From NCBI GenBank assembly GCA_002099625.1, contig GCA_002099625.1_4857.1: DNA of 64,000 nucleotides. One strand, written 5' to 3'. Within the stretch, counting starts at the first letter, position 1, and every line of letters starts with the position of its first letter. Shown piece by piece: positions 28,535 through 50,506 of the stretch. The stretch comes from Escherichia coli (lineage in GTDB: Bacteria > Pseudomonadota > Gammaproteobacteria > Enterobacterales > Enterobacteriaceae). The notes beneath the pieces were generated by a model. That model was given only the letters and a program-made list of their open reading frames with translations. It had not been told where the DNA came from and did no database searches. The position numbers and the translations under genes were made by a program.

Positions 28535-29016
28535 TACATCTGGTAAGCACCTACCTTAAAGCCAGCTTTGTCGTAGAGCGACTTCGCGGCAGCGTTACCG
28601 GCGTTCACGGACAGGTGAACAACTGTACACCCTTTTTCCGTTGCGGATTTCTTTACCGCATCCATCAACGCGGTGCCGTAACCTTTACCACGTGCGCTGC
28701 TGCTAACGACCAGTGAGGATACCGACATCATCGTCACACCCTCTTCAGTCATCGTGCGGTATTGCGCAAAGCCATACAAGACACCGTCGTCCACGACCGC
28801 CAGTAAACGACCCCGGAAGCGCTCGGCTAACGATTTAGCCGGCGTAAAACGGACATTAATACCCGTCTCTTTTCGATAGCTTTCTATTTCGCTTTTGTCC
28901 AGCTCGTTATAAAGCGCGAGGATATCTGTGGAATATTTCCTGCCGTTAGCCGTGTCTGGCCCCACTATGGTAATAATCTTCATCAGTTCACCTCGGCCAG
29001 CGATTGCTTCGTCCAC
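28522..29016 (-). CDS. GNAT-family N-acetyltransferase
   Basis: Motif A ARGKGYGTALMDAV and motif B KSLYDKAGF; 164 aa; tandem with 28058..28534. Confidence 0.65.
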   Translation of the reverse strand: MDEAIAGRGELMKIITIVGPDTANGRKYSTDILALYNELDKSEIESYRKETGINVRFTPAKSLAERFRGRLLAVVDDGVLYGFAQYRTMTEEGVTMMSVSSLVVSSSARGKGYGTALMDAVKKSATEKGCTVVHLSVNAGNAAAKSLYDKAGFKVGAYQMYWRV

Positions 29017-30116
29017 TCCATTAGACCCTCCGCCACGCGTACCAACGCCGTGGTGAATGCGTCTTCCATCGCCATTGCATTACGGTAACGTAACGTGGCC
29101 TCCTTCAGCTCATCCCCTTCTAGGTTCTTAAGCTCGGACTTCATCGCTTCCACTTCTTCGTAAATGCCGGTGTAGCCCACAACACGGTTCTTTGTTCCAC
29201 GTGCAGCAATAGATTTGATAAGTGCTTCCACAGCCTCTATTGCTTTCCCACACTGATGCATATCCAGCGATTTAATGGTTTCACCATACTCACCGTCACG
29301 CGCAATTGCCCAACTGACCTTACCACTATGGTGCTCAACCACAACGATATTTCCAGGGACAGGAAAAGCTTCCACCTTTTTAAAGGGATCGATGATGCCA
29401 AGCAACCCAGCAGCACGCTTAACTGCCCAGTTCGTGGACTTGCTGATTTGTTTTAAGCCTGGCCCTTCGAATGCTTTGCTTTTCTTCAGAGCGGTGCGTG
29501 TGTAAACCGTGTACTTTTGCACGACGCCTTCGTACGCATTTGTTTGTTTAGAAAACTTAACACACGCTTCAAAATCGGGTCGATCTTCAAAGCAAACTTT
29601 AGACGTCCAGCTGCTCGTGTGAACGTCGACCGCAGCGAGTGTTTTGTGGTCATCCAATAACGACATTCGTGCTTTGAGCTTATTGAGCTTACGCTCCATG
29701 AAAGCAGCTTTCGAAGTTATTTCTTTCAAACGGTCGGCTTGTTCTTTCGCTAGCGCTTCCGCGAAATCGTAAAAGCGTAATGCGAGCTTTTTCGAAAGTT
29801 TACCCGCGCCCTTTGCGGTTGCGCCTAGTCCAGCACCCACTAACTTTCCAGTACCTTTAACAGCTTTCGCAGTAATGCGCCCTGCTGCGCGATGGATGCC
29901 AGCCCGCGGGTCAGTATCAGTCATAAACTGAGCACGCTCCATCGCTTCGCGCGATTCACGAGCAACCAACATATCTTCACCGTCGTCGGTTAAGCACCAA
30001 CGCTGACGAATCGCGCAAACCGCAGGGAAGTCGGGCTTAACTCCCAGACCTTCGAGTGCGACCAGGCGATCGTAGTCGTCAGTCAGGACTTCTAAATCTA
30101 AATCGAGCGTCGACAT
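28983..30116 (-). CDS. hypothetical protein
   Basis: 377-aa ORF with K/A/G-rich segment. Confidence 0.5.
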   Translation of the reverse strand: MSTLDLDLEVLTDDYDRLVALEGLGVKPDFPAVCAIRQRWCLTDDGEDMLVARESREAMERAQFMTDTDPRAGIHRAAGRITAKAVKGTGKLVGAGLGATAKGAGKLSKKLALRFYDFAEALAKEQADRLKEITSKAAFMERKLNKLKARMSLLDDHKTLAAVDVHTSSWTSKVCFEDRPDFEACVKFSKQTNAYEGVVQKYTVYTRTALKKSKAFEGPGLKQISKSTNWAVKRAAGLLGIIDPFKKVEAFPVPGNIVVVEHHSGKVSWAIARDGEYGETIKSLDMHQCGKAIEAVEALIKSIAARGTKNRVVGYTGIYEEVEAMKSELKNLEGDELKEATLRYRNAMAMEDAFTTALVRVAEGLMEWTKQSLAEVN

Positions 30117-34495: not shown

Positions 34496-35146
34496 CTATT
34501 TCCTCCGGCGTCTTCCTTTCTGCTTACCGGCCTTAGCTTTAGGAACTTTAACCTTGGGCGGAAGGAGACTATTTAGGTTTAATAAGTTGACCCTGACGAA
34601 GATATTACCCACCGCCACGGCATCGATACTGTGTTCATCCAATACCGATAAGTCGCACCGGGTATGGTTCGCGTAGAGTTTGGTCACCGCTTGTTGCATA
34701 TGCGATTTATCTGTACCCTTTGCTTCCACACCAACGTACGACTTCACAATAATAGGATTAAACCCATGGAGATATTTTTCGGGAAACACGTCCCAAAGCG
34801 TTCGCCGCAACATCAGTTGCAATTCCACCCCAGATTCGTACGCTGAGAGCTTAGCTCTTCGCATGAACGGAGTTTCGGTAGCGACAAAAGTCGGCCTTGC
34901 CAGTTTTAAAAACTCACGAAAGCGTTCTTCTAATTCTACCAAACGCGCATCGCGTTTCCCTACGCACTCACCAAAAGAGCCATTGTGCGTAGGGTCCGCA
35001 ACATGAGCCGTGCCCGCCCAGACAACTTCACCTTGAGGTTGGCCAAATTCCCAGTCGATAACCGCCATCCCAAGATGGGCAGTACCGGGGTCAACAGCCG
35101 CAATCCTCACCATACTGTCGGGTAACCTCGGCTCAGGAATCAGCAT
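34496..35146 (-). CDS. RuvC-like Holliday junction resolvase
   Basis: IAAVDPGTAHLGMAV (catalytic Asp region), ATETPF and DAVAVG motifs; basic C-terminal tail; start may be ATG 35113. Confidence 0.55.
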   Translation of the reverse strand: MLIPEPRLPDSMVRIAAVDPGTAHLGMAVIDWEFGQPQGEVVWAGTAHVADPTHNGSFGECVGKRDARLVELEERFREFLKLARPTFVATETPFMRRAKLSAYESGVELQLMLRRTLWDVFPEKYLHGFNPIIVKSYVGVEAKGTDKSHMQQAVTKLYANHTRCDLSVLDEHSIDAVAVGNIFVRVNLLNLNSLLPPKVKVPKAKAGKQKGRRRRK

Positions 35147-38755: not shown

Positions 38756-41500
38756 ATGGAAGATATTAGTAAATTAACGGGCGACCCCGCGGTAGCTGCC
38801 ATACTGCGTAAGTCCACGAGCCCGTCGGCTCAGCAGCAACGCGGTAAGCGTGAAGATGGCGGCGTTACACCAACCCGTACAGAACTCACGGGCATTGCGA
38901 GTAGCCGCATTCGCACCGTTAAAAATGCCGAACGTATCTTTGATGCGCTCCCTGAGTTAGAGGTCATTGTTACCATCGCGACCTCCTCACTCCTGTCCAC
39001 AAAAGATTTGATTAACACCACGCTGATTTACGACAACGTGGCTGATATCCCGATCGACCTGCGTCAACAGTTGTTGGAACCTGTGCGTGAATTCCATGAC
39101 CACACGCGCCAGTTACCCAACAAACTGTATCAGTGGATTTACGATGCACTGAAATCCAAAGGCGCGAGCCCGGTGTTGCTGATTTCAGATACCGGATTCG
39201 ATGAACTCTTCGGCTTAAAGCCGTCTGTTGCAACCGAATCGTTGCGCCGTAGCCAATCTGACTTCTTTGAACGTCAGTTGGGTATCCTGGGCAAGATTGG
39301 CGGTGAAAACAAACCGAAGGTTGGTGTAGAAAGTATTCTGGGCCGTGCACGTGGCGCTGACAAGCCCACCAAGCCACAAACCATTAAACTTAACTTTGCA
39401 GCAGCCCCTAACAGTCCGTTTAAAGCAGACGGTATGTTAGCTTCCCTGGATATCGTTATCACCGACAACCCGCGTATTACCCTGCTACCAGAGGCTTATC
39501 GCCGTGTGGCACAGGAGAATGCTCGCACCGGCCTGTTCGGTCAGTTAGAGCAGTACGCATATGAACAACCTTCTACGCCGACAGGTGCGTCAGAGTATAA
39601 CGCTGACCAGTTCACAGACAGTGAACAAGAGAAGGCAAAACTCGGTTTAATCAACATCGGCGACCTCAACGAAGCGTACCAGAAAACGCCTGAGCAAAAG
39701 CTTTACGGCGAAGTACCGAAGATGAGTTTCTCCGATGCCAACAAAATCGAATACACGGAACGATTACTGCCAGCAGAGTCCACACTCCCGCTCGTTATCG
39801 GCGACGATGTTCGTAACCCCATAGGTTATCTGGCCATCGTTGACGAAATGGGTAACTTCATTAACTCGCGCTCCACACTTTACGGTGATGCGAACTTCAT
39901 GAACTACCTGAACAACGACGGTATGGTGGATTCAACAATCAACCGTGCGAATCTGGGGATGGGCAACACAACCCGAATCACACCAGACATTGCTAACCGC
40001 TTAACAGCGCGTTATGGTGAAATTGCTGAAGACCAGCTAACCAAAGCTCTGGGTGAGGCGTTGGGTGGTGCTGAGATTAGCATGACAGTAACCGAAACGT
40101 TCAGCCGTATCATGCTGGCGCGCCATCTGGCAAAACGTCATACGCAGGTTATCTATATTCCTGCGGAAAACCTTTGCTATTTTGCCACGGACTTTGATGA
40201 AGATGGTATCGGTGTATCTATTACCGAACGCTCGTTCGTTATCTCTACTGTCCGTATGGCGCTGTTGTTCGCTACCATGAACTCTGCGGTGTTGAACTCT
40301 GCACGTCACATGCAGTACGACATTGAGTTGGCACCAGATGACATGAACGGTCAGAAAACAATTGACCAGCTGAAAACAGACATCATGAACTCCTATAACC
40401 GTCGTCAACCGATGTGGGGGGACATGAACGACACCTGGGCAATGACGACAAACGCAGGTATTGCGTTTAACGTTATTGGTAACGACTACTACGGTAGTAC
40501 CAAAGTGTCTGTGTCGGACACTACGCCGGATTATAAATACCCGGATAAGGATTTCGACGAAGGTCTGTTACGACGTACTTGTCACATCGCAGGTGTTGAC
40601 CCTGACCTGGTAATGACCCCCGAGAACATCGAGTTTGCTTCACAGATCTTCTCTAAATCGTTACTGGTCACCCAGCAGGTTGTTAAGAAGCAAGAGATTC
40701 TCTCTAAGCCACTGACACGTTACGTAGTTAATGGGATGTTGGCCTCTCCGTCGTTGCAATCAGCGATGATTAAAATCATTGCAGAGTACATCAATGCTAA
40801 CGGCAATGGGATGACTACTGACCAGATTACGAAAAAGGTCTCTGAGTATCTGGCTGCGTTTATCAACGGTATGAAAGTAACCTTACCACCGCCAGACACC
40901 TCTGCAGCAGCTTCGCAGATGGAGCTGTTCGATAAACGTACGGAGTTCTTTGAGAAGCTGGCTGATCTGGTTGTAACGGATGACATTGCTGCGCAACTCC
41001 AGCAAGAAGGTATCTCGATGGACCCGAACGATCTGAAGACGATGATCAAATCCTTCTATACGCGCAACTGGCTGCGTAAACAAGGTATTGAAACCGACTT
41101 CTTCGATCTGGTTTACGACGATGATTCTCGTCAGGACAACATCACCATGATGACTGATGAAGCGATGGCTGCTTCGAAAACGCTGATTCAATTGGCGAAA
41201 CGTTTCACCGGGCGACTGGAAACGTTAGCGAAGAATGCCGACCTTGATCCTAACGATGCTTCCGGCGGATTCGGTGGTGGTTTTGATGCGGGCGGTGACA
41301 CCGGCGGTGGTGATGGGGATCTCGGCGGTGGGGGTGACGATGATTTAGACCTCGATCTCGATACGGATAACGGCACCGGTGGTGATAGTACAGAGGAAAC
41401 TACTGAGTCGACCGAAACCACGGAAACAACTACCGAGGGAACGGAAGGCACAGAAGGCGGTGAAGGAACTACCGACGACAACCCAGACAACGTCCTCTAA
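38756..41500 (+). CDS. large virion-associated protein, portal-like candidate
   Basis: Continuous 914-aa plus-strand ORF while minus frames are fragmented; C-terminal Gly/Asp/Thr/Glu low-complexity tail; portal assignment is speculative. Confidence 0.55.
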   Translation: MEDISKLTGDPAVAAILRKSTSPSAQQQRGKREDGGVTPTRTELTGIASSRIRTVKNAERIFDALPELEVIVTIATSSLLSTKDLINTTLIYDNVADIPIDLRQQLLEPVREFHDHTRQLPNKLYQWIYDALKSKGASPVLLISDTGFDELFGLKPSVATESLRRSQSDFFERQLGILGKIGGENKPKVGVESILGRARGADKPTKPQTIKLNFAAAPNSPFKADGMLASLDIVITDNPRITLLPEAYRRVAQENARTGLFGQLEQYAYEQPSTPTGASEYNADQFTDSEQEKAKLGLINIGDLNEAYQKTPEQKLYGEVPKMSFSDANKIEYTERLLPAESTLPLVIGDDVRNPIGYLAIVDEMGNFINSRSTLYGDANFMNYLNNDGMVDSTINRANLGMGNTTRITPDIANRLTARYGEIAEDQLTKALGEALGGAEISMTVTETFSRIMLARHLAKRHTQVIYIPAENLCYFATDFDEDGIGVSITERSFVISTVRMALLFATMNSAVLNSARHMQYDIELAPDDMNGQKTIDQLKTDIMNSYNRRQPMWGDMNDTWAMTTNAGIAFNVIGNDYYGSTKVSVSDTTPDYKYPDKDFDEGLLRRTCHIAGVDPDLVMTPENIEFASQIFSKSLLVTQQVVKKQEILSKPLTRYVVNGMLASPSLQSAMIKIIAEYINANGNGMTTDQITKKVSEYLAAFINGMKVTLPPPDTSAAASQMELFDKRTEFFEKLADLVVTDDIAAQLQQEGISMDPNDLKTMIKSFYTRNWLRKQGIETDFFDLVYDDDSRQDNITMMTDEAMAASKTLIQLAKRFTGRLETLAKNADLDPNDASGGFGGGFDAGGDTGGGDGDLGGGGDDDLDLDLDTDNGTGGDSTEETTESTETTETTTEGTEGTEGGEGTTDDNPDNVL

Positions 41501-41565
41501 ACAAAAAAGAAAAAGAAATAAGGTTTACCTCTCCCTTCGGGGAGAGGTACCTTTTCTTTTTTAAT
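41500..41565. terminator. bidirectional intrinsic terminator
   Basis: Stem tacctctccc/gggagaggta with ttcg loop, flanked by A-run upstream and T-run downstream; sits between convergent genes. Confidence 0.75.
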
Positions 41566-42229: not shown

Positions 42230-43906
42230 TTAGTACAACACTGGTGCAGTTTTCTCACCATTGCTCAGAAGCAGATAGGTGTGCTGCGGCAGCTGCATCA
42301 ATACAATTGCATGTGGCACGTTTTCCTGCACAGCTTCGTAGATAGATACAACAGGGTCTGCGGTATTGCCCAAAGACGCTACCGTAACCACATCATGCTT
42401 ATCAACGGAATGGTACATGCCTGGAATTACAATAGTGAACTGGCTCTGAATCAGATTAACTACTTTGCCGGAATCGCTCAGCTTAATAGTCAGTTTGCGC
42501 AGAGAGTTCGCCACCATCAAGAACAGGTCACGGAACCAGTCTTCATATTCACTGACGCCGTTGTCGCCAGCGGTTGCAGTGAACAGATCTTTTACGAAGA
42601 AATCAATATCGCTGATTTTGCGTTCGAAATCGATGGCTTTGAACTTCGGCACATCTTTACCGCGCTTAGTGCCCAGCGACAGCGCATTGTGTACCAAGAA
42701 CGTGATGTTCGCCAGGTACGCATTAGCAAAGCGAGAAATCTCACTGATAACCACTTCTGCTTCGCTGCTGTTCGCAATCGCATAATCGTGCAGTTCTTTC
42801 GTGTTCTTACGCAGTTCATCGATCGTACGTTTCACCTTAGCCATGATAGTTTCAACATCTTCTACCAGCGCCAGGCTGTCGAGATCGGATTTCAACGCGT
42901 CGTGCTTAGCAACAAATTGCTTCATGCGTTCGCACATATCAGTGTTAACACCGACCAGATACGCGCGATAACTATCCCGTGCACGCACAATCAGGTCAGC
43001 CCCGTCGTAGAAAACAACCTCTTCATTACCGTTAAAGATATCTTGCAACGGTGTAGCCCAATCACGCGTTTCCGCGTAAACAGATTGCTTAATGCGACTG
43101 TTAGCTTCCTTCGCTGGAATCGACATTTTAAGCTCGGGGGTTTTCAGCTCGTGAAGTGCGTAGTCTTCCATCAAATCAATCTCCTGCAGAATGTTGTTAA
43201 TTGGGCCATTGGTAGTGTCCTTCTCGGTTTCTTCTGTTGCGCCGAGTGGGGAAAGCACTGGGTTATTAACTGTAGCATTAGACACCGGCATTGGTTGTAC
43301 AGGCACCTGTGCTGGTTCAGGCTGGGGCTGTTGTGCTGTGGCTGGGACTACTTGCGCCGGTTGTGGGTTCAGGATAGGATCACTAACCAGGTTAAGACCT
43401 GCACCGCCAGCAATCACGGTTAGTGCCGCATCCGTGTTACCAATCTTAACGCCACCGGATGGCGCAGAAGACATGGTCAAGCCATCAGTAACACGCACAC
43501 CGCCAGAACTGTTACCGCCCAGTAACCCGCCTGCGTTGCTACCACCACCTAAACCACCACTGCCACCCAAACCGCCGGACTGCTGAGAACGAATTTCGGC
43601 AAGAATCTTACCGACTTGTTCCCAAGCATTAACCAGTTTGGTGTGACGATCGTCGTTATACGCGTCGCCTGCGTTATGCACCTGCTGATAGGCAGCTGCT
43701 TTATACGCATCGACTGCATATGCGATAACCTGTGCTTCACTACCCCCTTTGGATGCTGCCCATGCCGCAACATACGTCGCAATCTTTAACGCCTGATCTG
43801 GCGGAATGCTACGACTACGCATCACGTTATTCAACTGCGACAGTACCGCGTCCTGATCGAGGTGTTTAACGATGACGTTTTTGATTTGTTCAACAGTAAT
43901 GCTCAT
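42230..43906 (-). CDS. hypothetical protein with Gly-rich and Pro/Gln-rich low-complexity regions
   Basis: 558-aa ORF; the antisense 380-aa plus ORF is judged spurious. Confidence 0.55.
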   Translation of the reverse strand: MSITVEQIKNVIVKHLDQDAVLSQLNNVMRSRSIPPDQALKIATYVAAWAASKGGSEAQVIAYAVDAYKAAAYQQVHNAGDAYNDDRHTKLVNAWEQVGKILAEIRSQQSGGLGGSGGLGGGSNAGGLLGGNSSGGVRVTDGLTMSSAPSGGVKIGNTDAALTVIAGGAGLNLVSDPILNPQPAQVVPATAQQPQPEPAQVPVQPMPVSNATVNNPVLSPLGATEETEKDTTNGPINNILQEIDLMEDYALHELKTPELKMSIPAKEANSRIKQSVYAETRDWATPLQDIFNGNEEVVFYDGADLIVRARDSYRAYLVGVNTDMCERMKQFVAKHDALKSDLDSLALVEDVETIMAKVKRTIDELRKNTKELHDYAIANSSEAEVVISEISRFANAYLANITFLVHNALSLGTKRGKDVPKFKAIDFERKISDIDFFVKDLFTATAGDNGVSEYEDWFRDLFLMVANSLRKLTIKLSDSGKVVNLIQSQFTIVIPGMYHSVDKHDVVTVASLGNTADPVVSIYEAVQENVPHAIVLMQLPQHTYLLLSNGEKTAPVLY

Positions 43907-43937: not shown

Positions 43938-45716
43938 TTAGCGGCCGATTTTAGCAATGTCTTCTTCGGTCGGTCTGATGTACGGGTCCAGTTTAGGATT
44001 CCGCATCATTACCAAACTTGGGTTGGTCTTCATGTACGGGTTGAGGATGTTCGCCTTAAACGGTGCCGACTTAGGAATATAATAGACGTTACCACATTCC
44101 AGATGCGACGCGGATGCGTGCTTAGTACGGTCGTTCAAGTTAACGGTCTTGCCTCCTTTCTTCGAACGCTTAGCATCGGTTTCGGTTTGACCGATGGCGT
44201 GCGTAGACACTGCCAATACCATTGATTCTGTAGAGGCATTGAAGAAACTGATACCGCCGTTGCTCGTAATGGTGCGCATCACCAGATTGAGCACGATCTG
44301 TTTGTTCAGTGCGTCTCGAATAGACTTCGCCGCTGTCTCTGGAGTCCGATGTTCCAACTGCCCCAGCTTCCAACGTATTTTCGAGATCGTTGTGGTAAAG
44401 CCACGTTGGCCCAACAGTAAGTAATCGGTTACCGTGAGACGTTTTCCGTACATAGACGGAATATCATCTTGTTTGGTAAGACGAGTACGCACCATCAGCT
44501 GCGTGGTATACCAGAGGAAATCAAACATATCCAAATCATCAGGGATGGACGGATCGTTTGCCATCAGCTCACCACGGAAGGTGCTGTTGACATAGCGTTC
44601 ACATTCCTGGAAGTGGCTGTCCATACTGCGACTCAGTTCGATATCCGAAGGCTTCAGTCCGCGAATACTGCGGCCCAACACTTCACGCCAAGACGCTGCA
44701 GAGTTGAGGTTTGCAATATCTTCGTCCATTGCCATTTCATTAATCTGTGTAAACAGCCCCGGCAGTGTTGGTGCACGACCGTTCTTACTGTTCTGTTTAC
44801 CTGCGTAATAGTGCGCCGCTTTGAAGAATGCGGCAGTCGCTACCAGCAACAGATGTTCGTTTTGATCCCAACGCCCTGCATCGGTGTTAGGCATATCTTC
44901 ACGTTTAACCAACAGCACGTACTGGATGGTCTTCGCGAGTTGTGGCTCACCGGATTGAATCACCACATACTTCGTTAAGTCCACATCACGTACTTTAATT
45001 GCTGGCCAAATCGCCACATCAACGCCCGCATAACGCTTCACGGCTTGTTTAAAGCCATAACGCCCAAAGAGCCAATACATCAGTGGCTTCTCATCGGTGT
45101 CGTGTCCAATCTGTCCGGTTGAGACAAACAGATTCGATGTACCTGGCAAGAACAGCTGCTCAGGGCGACCATTCACCAGAATCTTCGTTGGTTTCTTACA
45201 GAACTTGATCGACACCTTGCGAGTGAAGTCAAAGTTAATAAAGATACCACCATGCTCACGACATATACCAGGTTGATGGATTACAGGTGCTACGTGGTAC
45301 GTTGTACCATAGTAGTTCATTAAGCCGCCACGACGAATAAACGGCAGGCTCATTGGTCGTTGTACCGGGCGAGGATCACCTGGAACTCGGAACGAGGCCA
45401 TTACCATATACGTGTCAGTGGATGAGATGTTAATAATTGACCGGCCACGATTATTTCGTGAATTGTTATCCGACTTCGATAACTTAAAGATAAAAGCTTC
45501 AAACGGCGACATTTGGCGACAACCTAGTACCGTTAACCCTTCTGGTAATTTCGGGTTATCGATTTCATCATACGTCAACTCACGACGTAGAATGGTTGCC
45601 ACACGATCATGTATCCCATCTTTAGCTTGTGTGTACCCAACTCCTTCTGCAATTGCACGATTAAAAGGCACTATTTCGCCTGCCTCTTTAATCTTCCTAA
45701 TCGCATCTTTAAACAC
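43938..45716 (-). CDS. large hypothetical protein, possible virion protein
   Basis: 592-aa ORF. Confidence 0.55.
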   Translation of the reverse strand: MFKDAIRKIKEAGEIVPFNRAIAEGVGYTQAKDGIHDRVATILRRELTYDEIDNPKLPEGLTVLGCRQMSPFEAFIFKLSKSDNNSRNNRGRSIINISSTDTYMVMASFRVPGDPRPVQRPMSLPFIRRGGLMNYYGTTYHVAPVIHQPGICREHGGIFINFDFTRKVSIKFCKKPTKILVNGRPEQLFLPGTSNLFVSTGQIGHDTDEKPLMYWLFGRYGFKQAVKRYAGVDVAIWPAIKVRDVDLTKYVVIQSGEPQLAKTIQYVLLVKREDMPNTDAGRWDQNEHLLLVATAAFFKAAHYYAGKQNSKNGRAPTLPGLFTQINEMAMDEDIANLNSAASWREVLGRSIRGLKPSDIELSRSMDSHFQECERYVNSTFRGELMANDPSIPDDLDMFDFLWYTTQLMVRTRLTKQDDIPSMYGKRLTVTDYLLLGQRGFTTTISKIRWKLGQLEHRTPETAAKSIRDALNKQIVLNLVMRTITSNGGISFFNASTESMVLAVSTHAIGQTETDAKRSKKGGKTVNLNDRTKHASASHLECGNVYYIPKSAPFKANILNPYMKTNPSLVMMRNPKLDPYIRPTEEDIAKIGR

Positions 45717-46837: not shown

Positions 46838-47536
46838 TTAGGGTATTAGGCGTTGGGCTATTTCGCGGAGTTGGTCGCGGGTTAAATCAGCCAACTTCTG
46901 GTCGCCGAAGCCCAACTTCAGACCCAGCTCGTATCCAGCTTGCGGATACGTGTTCGTGTTTGCTACTGAGAGGAGTGCATCGGCTATCTTTACCATCGTT
47001 AACTCGAGAGACGCATACGGGGCGGGGATCGGCTGATTCACGATTTGGTAATTATAACGCACTGCGGCGTTATCGTAGTCAAACTCCATCCTTCTGCCGA
47101 GAACGTTAAACGACTCCGCAGAATAACTACCAAATGGGTGATTGGCTTTTTCCCACAAATCTTTCCGTTCAGTAAACCCAGTCGCGAAGTTCTGACGTAT
47201 GGTGTCGAATATTTGCGTTGCCTGGCTAGGGTGTATATTTTTCAGCTCATTGTAGTCGTAGTCGGCGATGGAATATAGAGTGAACACAACACCGTTTATA
47301 TTTAACTGCGGATAATCCATCCGCAGACTATCATCACCTTGTAAATGAAGTTCCCACATCCTCACCCACTGCAATATCGCACTTACCGCATCGTGACTGA
47401 GATAAAAATTAGTAGGTTCTTCAGAATTTTCACGGAAGGGAACAGAGCATTCCGATGCAAAAAAGCCGGCTGCCATAAATCCTCTGCCGTCGAACATAGG
47501 CGCAACTAATCTTGATTTTTCTAAATTGATTACCAT
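46838..47536 (-). CDS. hypothetical protein
   Basis: 232-aa ORF; SD TAAGGAG; class B promoter 30 nt upstream. Confidence 0.55.
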   Translation of the reverse strand: MVINLEKSRLVAPMFDGRGFMAAGFFASECSVPFRENSEEPTNFYLSHDAVSAILQWVRMWELHLQGDDSLRMDYPQLNINGVVFTLYSIADYDYNELKNIHPSQATQIFDTIRQNFATGFTERKDLWEKANHPFGSYSAESFNVLGRRMEFDYDNAAVRYNYQIVNQPIPAPYASLELTMVKIADALLSVANTNTYPQAGYELGLKLGFGDQKLADLTRDQLREIAQRLIP

Positions 47537-47671: not shown

Positions 47672-49969
47672 TTAGCCGCCAGCGCCTTCACCGCCAGTAC
47701 CTGGCTGGGTACCGCCGCCAACATCACCAGCATTACCACCGTCAGTACCGCCGGTACCGTTGGAAGTAGTAGTGACGTTGAACGCCAGTTTCTCTTCCAC
47801 GAACTTGGTGATACCTTTAATCCAGATCAGACCAGTGATCGGGCAGTGGCAGATGTGCGCGTTACGAGGCTGTACTGCCAGCTCTTTGCTGGTAGCGCCG
47901 TTACGCTGGATGTTGATGTTGGTTACCATGATCGGAGACCAGAAGTGGTTACCCCAGTTCAGAACACAGTAAGAACCATCATCAGCGGTTGGAACTTTCA
48001 GAACCCACTGCAGGCGGCGAGTCCAGCTGCCGTCAGCTTCGTTCTTCACACGCCAGCGGTCATCGTTGGTGGTGATAACTTCGTACTCGTAGCGATCGCC
48101 CAGCAGACGCTGGTCACCCTGAACCAGCAGCAGCATTGCAGCAGTCGGTTCGTCAGTTGCGATAACAACTTTCGGCAGTGCGTTCGGGTCCGCAGTCAGC
48201 AGGCGCAGAGCCGGCATGAAGCGAGAGTCCTGGATAGCACGAGTTACCTGGTCACCGATACGCTGTACCAGACCCTGACGGGCGTTGATGAGCGCATCTT
48301 TGGTATCCAGAGACTGGATCACTTTGTCCACTTCGTAGTCGCTTTCGCTGTACCACGGAGCAACCCAGTGACGGCCCAGGCCGCGGATAGCAGGTTTGTC
48401 CCACGGAGTGATCATGGACGCAGCTGCGTTCTTAACCGCTTCGGTGTAAGACAGAGTCTGAGTGATAGCCAGCATTTCGTTACGGATGTTAACCGCAGAA
48501 ACGAGGTCGTCCAGACGTTCGGTGTCGTCGTATTCAACGCCAACCGGAGATTTGGTCATGATCGGAGAACCGTACTGCAGTTTGTAGTTCTCTTGTTCCC
48601 AAATCGGGTCGAGCAGAAGGCCCTGGGTTCTCCGGTTCTCGTTGGTACGAGTACCGTCGAAGCGCCAGCCCAGCAGCTCCAGTTTCAGGTTGTCGATGAT
48701 CACTTTACCGGTGCCGCTTTCGATATCAACAGCAGTACCAGTTGCGTCGTACAGACCTTCGATTTCCAGAGACGGTGCAGTCACGTCAACACGACCAGAG
48801 AACTGACCGTTGGTGAACAGAGACATGCTGATGTTCATGGAATAACGAATGGTGTAATCGTTCTGTGCCAGAGCGGCCAGTGCCGGGATTTCAGCACCTT
48901 TCCAGTCCAGAGACTTGGCGTTCAGGGAGAACACGGTGCGACGGAACTGCAGGACCAGCTCACGGCCATCACCTTCAGGAGGACGCTGGAAAGTAGCGAA
49001 CTGCATGTCGCGTACGTTCAGTTTGATCAGCGCACCATCTTTCGCTTCTTCGGTCGGCTTACGCACAGACAGCAGCAGGCTACCCAGCGCCGCACCCGGT
49101 GCGATTTCGTCGGTTTCATCGTAACCTTCCTGCACGATACCCGGATGGGCAGACAGCTGGAACAGGTTCAGACGACGTTCAGAGAAGCTCAGGTAGTTGG
49201 TCGGATACGCCGGCACACGACCCAGCTGAACGTTTTCGTTTTCGATGATGTCTTCGGATACGAAGAACTTCGCGTTCTCGCCGGTTTCCATCACGTAAGG
49301 AACGATACGGATAGCATCGTCCTGCAGGACTTTGTGGTTAGACAGCGCGTTATGCAGCGGCTGACGGTTGTCTTCAACCACGTCTTTGGTCAGCAGGGCG
49401 TTCAGGATACCACGAGTTACAGTAGTAACTTTGGTACGAACGGTGATGCCGACGTCGTTGGTGTCCACAGTGATGGTCGGGAACAGGGTTTCTGCAAACT
49501 TGGATTGAGTTTCCAGAGCACGCACGTTCAGCGTCCAGGTCAGACCCAGGTTTTTGTCCAGGTCTTTGTTGGTGTAGTATTCGGTTGCGACCAGCGGAGT
49601 TTTACCGTAGTCAGCAGCCAGAGATGCTGCACCGGAAATAGCGATCGGCATGTAGCTGGCATATTCCGGCTTCGCGCTCTCAGCAGCAACACGGGTCATG
49701 AAGTCATCTTCGTGACCGGCAGCAGCCAGAATCATCGCAGAAGCAACCTGAGCAGCGTGGCTCATGGTTTTGCCAGGGTTTACAGCTTCGTAGTGCTGCT
49801 GAGCAGTGTCACGCAGGTTGGTGAAGCCGGCAGCATTTTTACGTACAGATTCGCCAACGGCTACGGTTTGCCATACGTCATTAGCGGAAGAGCCTGCCTT
49901 GGCAGCAGCGACCAGAGCATTGCCCTGCTGAACCAGCTGGTCCAGACTAGCGATACGGGTATCTTTCAT
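47672..49969 (-). CDS. abundant large structural protein, major capsid or sheath candidate
   Basis: 765-aa ORF with strongly biased codon usage, strong downstream terminator, Gly-rich C-terminal tail; the antisense 715-aa plus ORF has R/V/F/Q-rich junk-like composition. Confidence 0.55.
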   Translation of the reverse strand: MKDTRIASLDQLVQQGNALVAAAKAGSSANDVWQTVAVGESVRKNAAGFTNLRDTAQQHYEAVNPGKTMSHAAQVASAMILAAAGHEDDFMTRVAAESAKPEYASYMPIAISGAASLAADYGKTPLVATEYYTNKDLDKNLGLTWTLNVRALETQSKFAETLFPTITVDTNDVGITVRTKVTTVTRGILNALLTKDVVEDNRQPLHNALSNHKVLQDDAIRIVPYVMETGENAKFFVSEDIIENENVQLGRVPAYPTNYLSFSERRLNLFQLSAHPGIVQEGYDETDEIAPGAALGSLLLSVRKPTEEAKDGALIKLNVRDMQFATFQRPPEGDGRELVLQFRRTVFSLNAKSLDWKGAEIPALAALAQNDYTIRYSMNISMSLFTNGQFSGRVDVTAPSLEIEGLYDATGTAVDIESGTGKVIIDNLKLELLGWRFDGTRTNENRRTQGLLLDPIWEQENYKLQYGSPIMTKSPVGVEYDDTERLDDLVSAVNIRNEMLAITQTLSYTEAVKNAAASMITPWDKPAIRGLGRHWVAPWYSESDYEVDKVIQSLDTKDALINARQGLVQRIGDQVTRAIQDSRFMPALRLLTADPNALPKVVIATDEPTAAMLLLVQGDQRLLGDRYEYEVITTNDDRWRVKNEADGSWTRRLQWVLKVPTADDGSYCVLNWGNHFWSPIMVTNINIQRNGATSKELAVQPRNAHICHCPITGLIWIKGITKFVEEKLAFNVTTTSNGTGGTDGGNAGDVGGGTQPGTGGEGAGG

Positions 49970-49981
49970 TTCAAGTTTACC

Positions 49982-50506
49982 TTATTTAGATAAATGACAT
50001 GCGTACAACTGCGTCAGCACTTCGTGCGCAGCAAACTGCGTCGACGTACTGAACGTATCATCCACGACACGAGTCTTGGGACGCATATATTTAAAAAGTT
50101 CTGCGCAGAACATCTTTTTCGCAGCGTGGTCTTCACTTAAAGAAAAACCCGGTCCGGATTTAGCTTCTGCAAAAGACGCCACAACAACATCGCCACGTTG
50201 TGAGAACACCCAACGTAAACGACCGTCGAATGATTCCCCATATAAATCAGCAAGGGTTTCATTCGTACCTTTCTCAACCAGGTTTAAGACCTGGTCATAA
50301 TAAAGAGTCGGAAGTGCAGGTGGTGCCATAATCGATTTATAAATCGAAATAGGGTCACTCACTGGCAGTATGATGGAACTAAAGCCCGACGAGCAGTCAT
50401 ATAACCAGTTAAAGAAGCTTGCTTGGAGTTCCTCCAACTTTTTAACGCCAGCCCCTTTATCTATGTTAGATTGAACTTCCCACGGTGGACTAAAACGAAT
50501 TTGCAT
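49982..50506 (-). CDS. hypothetical protein
   Basis: Start at ATG 50506 (MQIRFSPPW), 15 nt from the divergent plus-strand start. Confidence 0.5.
   Translation of the reverse strand: MQIRFSPPWEVQSNIDKGAGVKKLEELQASFFNWLYDCSSGFSSIILPVSDPISIYKSIMAPPALPTLYYDQVLNLVEKGTNETLADLYGESFDGRLRWVFSQRGDVVVASFAEAKSGPGFSLSEDHAAKKMFCAELFKYMRPKTRVVDDTFSTSTQFAAHEVLTQLYACHLSK

Follow-up and report, generated by a model that had tools for sequence, protein, structure and literature searches.

The DNA analysed here is a stretch of 64,000 nucleotides (the window) from contig GCA_002099625.1_4857.1 of the Escherichia coli assembly GCA_002099625.1. Judged by its sequence, the window belongs to a Seoulvirus, that is, an SPN3US-like member of the phiKZ-like jumbo phages, and the DNA around the tracts discussed below is 96-98% identical to that of Salmonella phage SPN3US and its SPFM and SPLA relatives. 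Our main subject is the portal protein gene, the equivalent of SPN3US gene 81, whose product ends in a polyanionic tail that is predicted to be disordered and occurs throughout the family. Low-complexity tracts are also found in the major capsid protein (MCP) and in a homologue of SPN3US gp78, both encoded on the opposite strand (Table 1). A low-entropy scan of 81 non-overlapping open reading frames (ORFs) of the window (19,947 aa) found six such tracts in total, compared with 0.18 expected from shuffled proteins, and four of the six are in these three proteins; the tracts are therefore as unusual as the original prediction, made from the letters alone, had claimed, and a chance origin is excluded. 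That prediction had treated them as one phenomenon, Gly/Asp/Thr-rich tails on three proteins of the virion module. They fall apart into a polyanionic, family-wide tail on the portal protein, a near-neutral, clade-specific tail on the MCP, and a linker in the gp78-like protein that is first Gly-rich and then Pro/Gln-rich.

The assignment of the portal gene is supported by phmmer matches of its product to the portals of phiKZ (gp129, 9xpe; E 5.9e-48) and Goslar (gp36, 11ed; E 2.2e-26). An AlphaFold2 (AF2) model built from a 50-sequence alignment is of moderate quality, with a mean predicted local distance difference test (pLDDT) score of 64; its best Foldseek match is the phiKZ portal 9xpe_M (E 2e-23), followed at weak E values by the portals of crAss001, N4, T4 and G20c, and by this comparison the model has the wing, stem, clip and crown of the portal fold. 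SPN3US gp81, phiKZ gp129 and Goslar gp36, portals of the phiKZ-like phages (Chimalliviridae), are direct homologues of the same length class that share with the window portal the N-terminal protease sites, the four domains and the acidic type of tail, and we see no essential difference between them and it. Cryo-EM has shown the phiKZ and Goslar portals to be dodecamers at a unique capsid vertex. Outside the tail, the window portal is ~98-99% identical to the portals of the SPN3US group, and from its 98% identity to SPN3US gp81 we infer the same dodecameric arrangement. The phiKZ portal is essential according to a transposon sequencing (TnSeq) preprint, which does not give insertion positions at the 3' end of the gene.

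The last Lys or Arg of the portal protein is K826. The 88 residues that follow (827-914; 8.5 kDa, isoelectric point (pI) 4.05) contain 27 Asp and Glu residues and thus carry a net charge of -27, and the composition of the final 103 residues is dominated by Gly (24), Thr (18), Asp (18) and Glu (10). The tract that had been reported is therefore real; its length had been given as about 100 aa, and the start assigned to it, position 41190, falls ~15 codons upstream of the tail, within the last crown helix. In the AF2 model, residues 828-914 have pLDDT values of 26-34 and no DSSP elements, following a crown helix at 789-827, and the disorder prediction that had been proposed as a check thus agrees: the tail is predicted to be intrinsically disordered. 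Tandem Repeats Finder (TRF) found no tandem repeats in the DNA that encodes the tail, synonymous codons are used in mixture, no exact repeat is longer than 10 nt, and equivalent tails occur in many independently sequenced relatives; we therefore exclude a DNA-repeat or assembly artefact, reject slippage at the DNA level as the origin of the tail, and conclude that its low complexity is a property of the protein. When only the tail was searched against the Protein Data Bank (PDB), the Goslar portal tail came up at E 0.9, and all other matches were chance low-complexity ones.

To avoid selecting on the tail, homologues were searched with the mature core only (residues 255-826) against 1.84 billion cluster representatives, which gave 1,081 matches. 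All of 60 homologues with 99-42% identity end in a run of 47-110 residues that is free of Lys and Arg and has a net charge of -17 to -53. Among 185 full-length portals from both of our searches, the net charge of the last 90 residues is -27.5±9 and is -15 or lower in 169; internal windows have -3.4±1.3, and the N-terminal 90 residues +1.5. An equivalent tail of similar length and charge is present in every one of the 185, down to 23% core identity; Asp and Glu make up 35% of the last 80 residues and 14% of the body (140 proteins scored), and alignments show that phiKZ gp129 and Goslar gp36 carry the same kind of tail. Comparison with relatives, which had been suggested as a safeguard against artefact, thus finds the tracts conserved.

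What is conserved is not the order of residues. In all relatives, the tblastn alignment of the portal breaks off at residues 826-832. Where the core is 92% identical, the tail is 47% identical, and overall the tail ranges from 10 to 47% where the core ranges from 43 to 92%. Relative to SPN3US, the ratio of non-synonymous to synonymous substitution rates (ω) is 0.016 in the core and 0.24 in the tail, the latter from small counts (12 non-synonymous and 14 synonymous differences), with amino acid changes in 3 of 572 and 12 of 87 codons, respectively; relative to Asesino, the values are 0.10 and 0.27, with synonymous divergence (dS) saturated. The tail is the fastest-evolving sequence of the portal protein, and there are indels between close strains. 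It is under relaxed but purifying selection on its composition, neither neutral nor diversifying; an ω of 0.24 led us to reject diversifying selection. On these comparisons, the tail is a composition-constrained conserved disordered region, in which charge and length are kept and sequence is not. It should be noted that the SPFM records vary in quality. GenBank entries LR535901, LR535903-LR535908, LR535911-LR535913 and LR535917 (SPFM1, 5, 6, 7, 8, 9, 10, 12, 14, 15 and 20) align with the window only in 14-40 short pieces, and several of them give scrambled 'portal' and 'MCP' proteins; they are therefore probably indel-ridden assemblies. These proteins were left out of the statistics, either by their identifiers or by a length cutoff.

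The crown is the top of the portal and lies inside the capsid, as described for Goslar (preprint), T4 (review) and T7 (PMC6702177), and by the topology of these related structures the tail would be located within the capsid. Its fate during maturation can be judged from the prohead protease gp245 of SPN3US, which cuts after A-x-E and processes gp81 at ATE-161 and AQE-254 (PMC5694885, PMC10052503) and the MCP gp75 at ATE-130, again near the N terminus; with the exception of the protease itself, all published substrates lose N-terminal pieces. The window portal has A-x-E at residues 159-161 and 252-254, and these sites are almost invariant in the clade (E161 in 49/50, A252 in 49/50 and E254 in 50/50 sequences). 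Beyond residue 280 the portal has no A-x-E, nor does the MCP beyond residue 153, and the triplet is not enriched in the tails of the clade (19 observed, 22.8±3.3 in shuffled tails). For the mature portal, a mass of 72.4 kDa is calculated if the tail is included and of 63.9 kDa if it is not; SPN3US gp81 peaks in the gel slice that holds the 70.4-kDa MCP and the 75.7-kDa sheath protein, while the slice below holds proteins of 51-61 kDa. No C-terminal processing of gp81 or gp75 is reported in three mass spectrometry (MS) studies of SPN3US. The tail itself has no Lys or Arg and is therefore invisible to tryptic MS. Since the tail has no A-x-E, the published gp245 cuts are N-terminal and the gel slice of gp81 fits 72.4 kDa, the tail is likely retained in the mature virion.

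The N-terminal region that is cut off shows some features of its own. Residues ~40-150 of the portal have AF2 pLDDT values of 70-88, so that the 'propeptide' resembles a folded domain, and both published protease sites coincide with or adjoin loops predicted at low confidence (157-162 and 259-295). Goslar residues 5-519, the counterpart of this region, are ordered in the wing domain of the virion, and many gp81 propeptide peptides persist in SPN3US heads (SPN3US 2023 paper); the cleaved pieces may stay bound.

Two parts of the tail depart from pure composition. Near its start, the pattern G-x0-1-[FYWM]-[GDS], here called G-Φ-G, occurs within the first 40 tail residues of 77 of the 185 portals, compared with 36±5 for shuffled tails, and in the clade alignment F843 is present in 28/50 and G844 in 32/50 sequences. 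In the Goslar virion, chain 36za_o8 comprises residues 5-921 of the 969 of gp36, so that ~27 residues past the last Lys (K894) are modelled and the final 48 (DDFGGGDDFGDTDFD...TSGG) are absent from the model. Here chain length was read as modelled length, because for the MCP chain of that entry the length, 583 residues, equals what the preprint gives as built. The phiKZ in-virion model covers 633 of the 896 residues of gp129. The Goslar crown packs on three neighbours (Goslar preprint), and by analogy the proximal segment of the window portal, residues 827-853, probably lies ordered over neighbouring crown domains. At the other end, the last residue is hydrophobic in 90 of the 185 portals (21.7 expected) and in 53 of 132 representatives of clusters at 50% identity (16.3 expected, p 9e-16), and Pro is found at position -3 in 23%, against a background of 4%. 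The tips within the clade read ...DDNPDNVL, ...DDDIPL, ...DDIPL and ...DDNPPL. Disordered acidic tails with a Pro/hydrophobic tip dock onto partners and compete with DNA in the DNA-replication proteins SSB of E. coli (...DDDIPF) and gp2.5 and gp4 of T7; the resemblance of portal tips such as ...DDDIPL and ...DDIPL to these is compositional only, the proteins and their context being unrelated.

Based on these results, we propose a reading to which we give an even chance: that the portal carries a conserved, disordered, polyanionic crown tail, retained in the virion and built of three parts, which acts both as a tether or docking element and as a repeller of DNA. Twelve copies, with about -324 charges between them, would reach from the crown into the interior of the capsid, where the DNA channel has its inner mouth. 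Each would begin with a short G-Φ-G segment ordered across neighbouring crown domains, continue as a spacer of 50-60 Asp, Glu, Gly and Thr residues whose sequence is free as long as it stays negative and without Lys or Arg, and end in an acidic tip, usually with a hydrophobic last residue. In the prohead during assembly, and then in the virion, the tail would serve as a flexible tether by which internal head or ejection proteins of positive charge are docked and held at the portal vertex, and its charge would keep packaged DNA away from the crown. We favour tethering and docking because positional hydrophobic motifs accompany a conservation that otherwise concerns composition only, because the proximal part appears ordered against neighbouring subunits in Goslar, and because T7 gp8 offers a precedent; the tether or brush function itself is something that we infer. 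Of the roles that the original prediction had suggested for the tails, an interaction with a scaffold is plausible, while binding of DNA is implausible for the portal tail because it is a polyanion, for which repulsion or mimicry is more likely.

Several points weigh against this proposal. As a binding partner, the basic tract of an internal head protein described below is a guess; a purely electrostatic role would also explain conservation of composition alone; the hydrophobic tip is found in just 40-49% of the family and the G-Φ-G motif in ~40%; and the ordered proximal segment presupposes that the sequence of the 36za chain corresponds to modelled residues. Retention is argued from gel migration, which acidic tails may distort, and no tail peptide was found in the small supplement of the 2023 SPN3US MS paper, a result that says little either way. 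In its strongest form, which we think rather doubtful, the proposal would make the twelve acidic-Pro-hydrophobic tips a dedicated docking system that places internal head and ejection proteins, such as the virion RNA polymerase (vRNAP) and proteins of the inner-body type, at the exit vertex. If so, it would fix prohead nucleation as well as the sequence in which proteins leave at infection, and recruitment borne by the portal would be unlike the capsid-targeting sequences of T4 or classical scaffolds.

The main alternative is an electrostatic one, a brush without partners, in which the polyanions repel DNA from the crown and the channel mouth and so organise the last-in/first-out end of the genome or sense headful pressure; we regard it as possible but tentative. 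It accounts for the conservation of charge, length and absence of Lys and Arg rather than of sequence, and it has parallels in P22, where the portal barrel (residues 603-725) lacks a fold when DNA is absent, is mildly acidic on its surface and was proposed to straighten through DNA repulsion (PMC5290284), and in T7, whose crown was proposed to act as a pressure sensor (PMC6702177). A brush, however, needs no positional motifs, yet the G-Φ-G near the start, the hydrophobic last residue and the Pro at -3 suggest specific contacts, and the apparently ordered proximal segment in Goslar also speaks against it. The tail might instead do its work on the free portal, before assembly, and be inert in the virion: as a bristle that confers solubility or prevents aggregation, as a mimic that excludes nucleic acid or terminase, or as a partner of the mildly basic N-terminal region until this is cleaved off. 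The pI of residues 1-254 is 8.7, set against a strongly acidic core and tail, the PhiPA3 portal can localise alone to the shell of the phage nucleus before capsid assembly (PMC10643120), and by our estimate an extended chain of 60-88 residues would span ~20-30 nm, compared with a diameter of ~7 nm for the Goslar channel. We nevertheless consider a role confined to this stage improbable, since the N-terminal region carries a net charge of only about +2, too little against -27, and the crown faces away from both the terminase and the clip that binds the shell.

The original prediction had also suggested removal by a prohead protease. Tails that were propeptides, taken off in the course of maturation by this protease or a different one, would fit the last 48 residues of Goslar gp36 and the 263 of 896 residues of phiKZ gp129 that are absent from the virion models. 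The phiKZ-type protease is reported to be less strict in its motifs than that of SPN3US; S/G-x-E triplets do occur in the window tail (878-903), and C-terminal cuts are known from T4 Alt and from the proteases themselves. The logo of the SPN3US protease is strict, however, and the tail offers it no A-x-E; together with the lack of enrichment in clade tails beside almost invariant N-terminal sites, the gel mass and the MS studies cited above, this makes removal very unlikely. Least credible of all, to the point that we give it hardly any weight, is that the tail is a functionless product of low-complexity drift, a tolerated appendix prone to slippage. Its rapid evolution and the indels between close strains are what drift would produce, but against it stand a tail of similar length and charge in all 185 full-length members, an ω below 1, the complete exclusion of Lys and Arg over 88 residues, motifs at set positions and DNA free of repeats.

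Disordered or inducible C-terminal extensions of the portal crown are already known from P22 and T7, and the comparison with them shows where the tail described here differs. The P22 barrel is likewise a long extension of the crown into the capsid, unfolded in the procapsid and in solution and mildly acidic (PMC5290284), but it is an inducible α-helical coiled coil, whereas the window tail, rich in Gly, Asp, Thr and Glu, has no predicted helix, is far more negative and is not homologous. In T7 gp8, no structure shows the last 42 crown residues, and it was proposed that they become ordered only when bound to the proteins of the internal core (PMC6702177); that tail was predicted to be helical, a polyanionic composition is not reported for it, and gp14, gp15 and gp16 form a defined core stack in T7, in contrast to the ejection-protein bolus of >40 MDa here. 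Term searches of the SPN3US proteomics papers, the phiKZ atlas and the Goslar preprint, and searches of the literature, found no discussion of the portal tail ('acidic' occurs 0 times in the Goslar text), and within this partial coverage of the literature a polyanionic, Gly/Asp/Glu/Thr-rich portal tail shared by a whole family is apparently undescribed. In the cryo-EM studies of phiKZ and Goslar, neither the inner body nor the portal's end could be seen.

Giant phiKZ-like phages have to load, position and eject tens of MDa of internal proteins, including the vRNAP needed to start infection, and are not known to have a classical scaffold; a family-wide disordered brush of about -324 charges with docking-like motifs is a candidate link between the portal and these proteins that can be tested genetically, SPN3US having both amber-mutant genetics and proteomics suited to such a test. 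If the tail proves dispensable, the finding shrinks to that of a conserved but ordinary disordered appendix. Two other proteins of the window came up in this connection. The 377-aa product of an ORF at 28983-30116 (-) belongs to PHROG 2497, has a weak Pfam phiKZ_IP match and corresponds to SPN3US gp94 in size and in its syntenic annotation as 'internal head protein'. Residues 81-113 of this protein form the sole basic low-complexity tract in the window (AKAVKGTGKLVGAGLGATAKGAGKLSKKLAL), and to regard it as the counter-charge partner of the portal tail is speculative. The 216-aa product of 34496-35146 (-) ends in a polybasic tail (...PPKVKVPKAKAGKQKGRRRRK); it is a homologue of RuvC-like Holliday junction resolvases (PHROG 159), and on these grounds was rejected as a partner.

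Table 1 Features of the window discussed in the text, with their coordinates and the basis of each assignment
Feature	Position	Strand	Basis
Portal protein gene, SPN3US gp81 equivalent, 914 aa	38756..41500	+	PHROG 3004 E=0; synteny with SPN3US record
Portal N-terminal region, residues 1-254, protease-released in SPN3US	38756..39517	+	Sites ATE-161 and AQE-254 present; pI 8.7
Mature portal core, residues 255-826 (wing, stem, clip, crown; last crown helix 789-827)	39518..41233	+	AF2 secondary structure; ω 0.016 vs SPN3US
Polyanionic portal C-terminal tail, predicted disordered, residues 827-914	41234..41497	+	Composition, charge, pLDDT, family conservation, ω
Proximal tail segment, residues 827-853, NADLDPNDASGGFGGGFDAGGDTGGGD, with G-Φ-G motif	41234..41314	+	Motif counts; Goslar chain comparison
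C-terminal tip DDNPDNVL (acidic, Pro, terminal hydrophobic)	41474..41497	+	Positional enrichment
Bidirectional terminator-like hairpin between convergent portal gene and 100-aa minus-strand gene	41526..41549	.	Consensus match only
gp78-like essential non-virion protein, 558 aa	42230..43906	-	PHROG 8185; synteny with SPN3US gp78
Internal linker, predicted disordered, residues 107-233, Gly-rich then Pro/Gln-rich	43208..43588	-	Low entropy; AF2
Major capsid protein gene, SPN3US gp75 equivalent, 765 aa	47672..49969	-	Pfam PhiKZ_MCP PF25620 E 8e-226; PHROG 3231
MCP C-terminal Gly/Thr-rich extension, residues 734-765	47675..47770	-	Beyond Goslar MCP end
GGNAGDVGG motif in MCP tail, residues 744-752	47714..47740	-	Recurs in homologues

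The MCP of the window is matched by the PhiKZ_MCP domain over residues 72-725 with 751.6 bits (cutoff 27), matches the MCPs of Goslar, phiKp24 and phiKZ in the PDB, and has the ATE-130 site. As had been predicted, it ends in a Gly/Thr-rich tract (...NGTGGTDGGNAGDVGGGTQPGTGGEGAGG); the last Lys is at 727, and the tract, 32-38 residues long and nearly uncharged, lies outside the domain. MCP residue 733 aligns to residue 738 of the 740 in Goslar, and the alignment with phiKZ gp120 reaches residue 735 of 747; residues 734-765 are thus extra. Comparison of homologues found no such tail in phiKZ or Goslar, whose MCPs end at the C-terminal arm, whereas the clade of the window adds 14-46 residues rich in Gly, Thr, Ala, Ser and Pro and with little charge, in homologues down to ~60% identity. 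Variants of one motif (GGNAGDV, GGNAGNV, TNAGDVG and GDNAGNVGG) recur in these tails at 60-99% identity. In phiKZ, the C-terminal arms form a six-helix bundle at the centre of the hexon and swing out to the external gp244 at pentons, and in Goslar they form a six-stranded β-barrel at the hexon centre. Cryo-EM of SPN3US showed a small external protrusion at every hexamer centre and a hole at pentamers, and the protrusion was ascribed to an unidentified protein likened to Hoc of T4. The MCP tail would extend the arm at this very centre, so that six tails (about 6 × 3 kDa) may contribute to or form the protrusion; this would be a simple explanation for its density, and one that needs no extra protein.

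The MCP gene is distinctly GC-rich (0.546 over 48001-50000), compared with 0.45-0.50 elsewhere in the window. An ORF of 232 aa (PHROG 15414, unknown function) at 46838-47536 (-) separates the gp76-like gene from the MCP gene, a position at which SPN3US has a gap of 333 bp only. The ORF is present with ≥98.9% identity in most SPFM and SPLA strains, in SEGD1 and in phage 1252, no more than 33-37% of the segment is matched in the genomes of JN03, SaP7, Proteus phage 7 and MET_P1_082_240, and Asesino and Huxley have a gene at the same position. The stretch 46838-47536 is a variable accessory slot beside the MCP gene.

The third protein corrects the record in another way, since one of the tracts lies in an essential protein that is not part of the virion. 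The 558-aa protein does contain the Gly-rich segment that had been noted (SGGLGGSGGLGGG, low entropy over residues 103-142) and a Pro/Gln-rich tract at 179-209, but both are internal and form a linker, not a tail. Its AF2 model (10 sequences, mean pLDDT 41) has a confident helical N-terminal domain (1-110), a stretch from 111 to 233 with pLDDT 22-31 and no secondary structure, again in line with predicted disorder, and a poorly modelled C-terminal region. A sequence search of the PDB found no match. Asesino, Huxley and Phobos have a linker at the corresponding position but with a different sequence; in the homologue from Erwinia phage Phobos (gp77, L004 13797-15350), an Asn-rich linker with four NNPFL/NPFL repeats replaces the Gly and Pro/Gln tracts, so that the chemistry of the linker varies between genera. 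A homology to the syntenic phiKZ gp124 was considered and is unsupported: BLASTP gave no significant match, and a MAFFT alignment is no evidence.

Its placement among virion-module proteins does not agree with the SPN3US data, in which gp78 is not among the proteins of the virion proteome (Supplementary Table 1), while gp74, 75, 81, 82, 83 and 84 are. SPN3US gp78 is one of three essential non-virion proteins, and a regulatory role was proposed for it (Thomas et al. 2016, PMC5105663); its amber mutant makes no detectable virion proteins, and its gene adjoins gene 77, which encodes the N-terminal β-subunit fragment of the non-virion RNA polymerase (nvRNAP; PMC5105663). In the window, the gp78-like gene lies directly downstream of an ORF of 592 aa at 43938-45716, also on the minus strand, which belongs to a PHROG 'polymerase' family and corresponds to SPN3US gp77. 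The gp78-like protein could be an nvRNAP-associated or late-transcription factor.

Beyond the 3' end of the portal gene, the hairpin listed in Table 1 has a perfect 10-bp stem with six G-C pairs and T-runs on both strands, and from its sequence it is likely a bidirectional intrinsic terminator.

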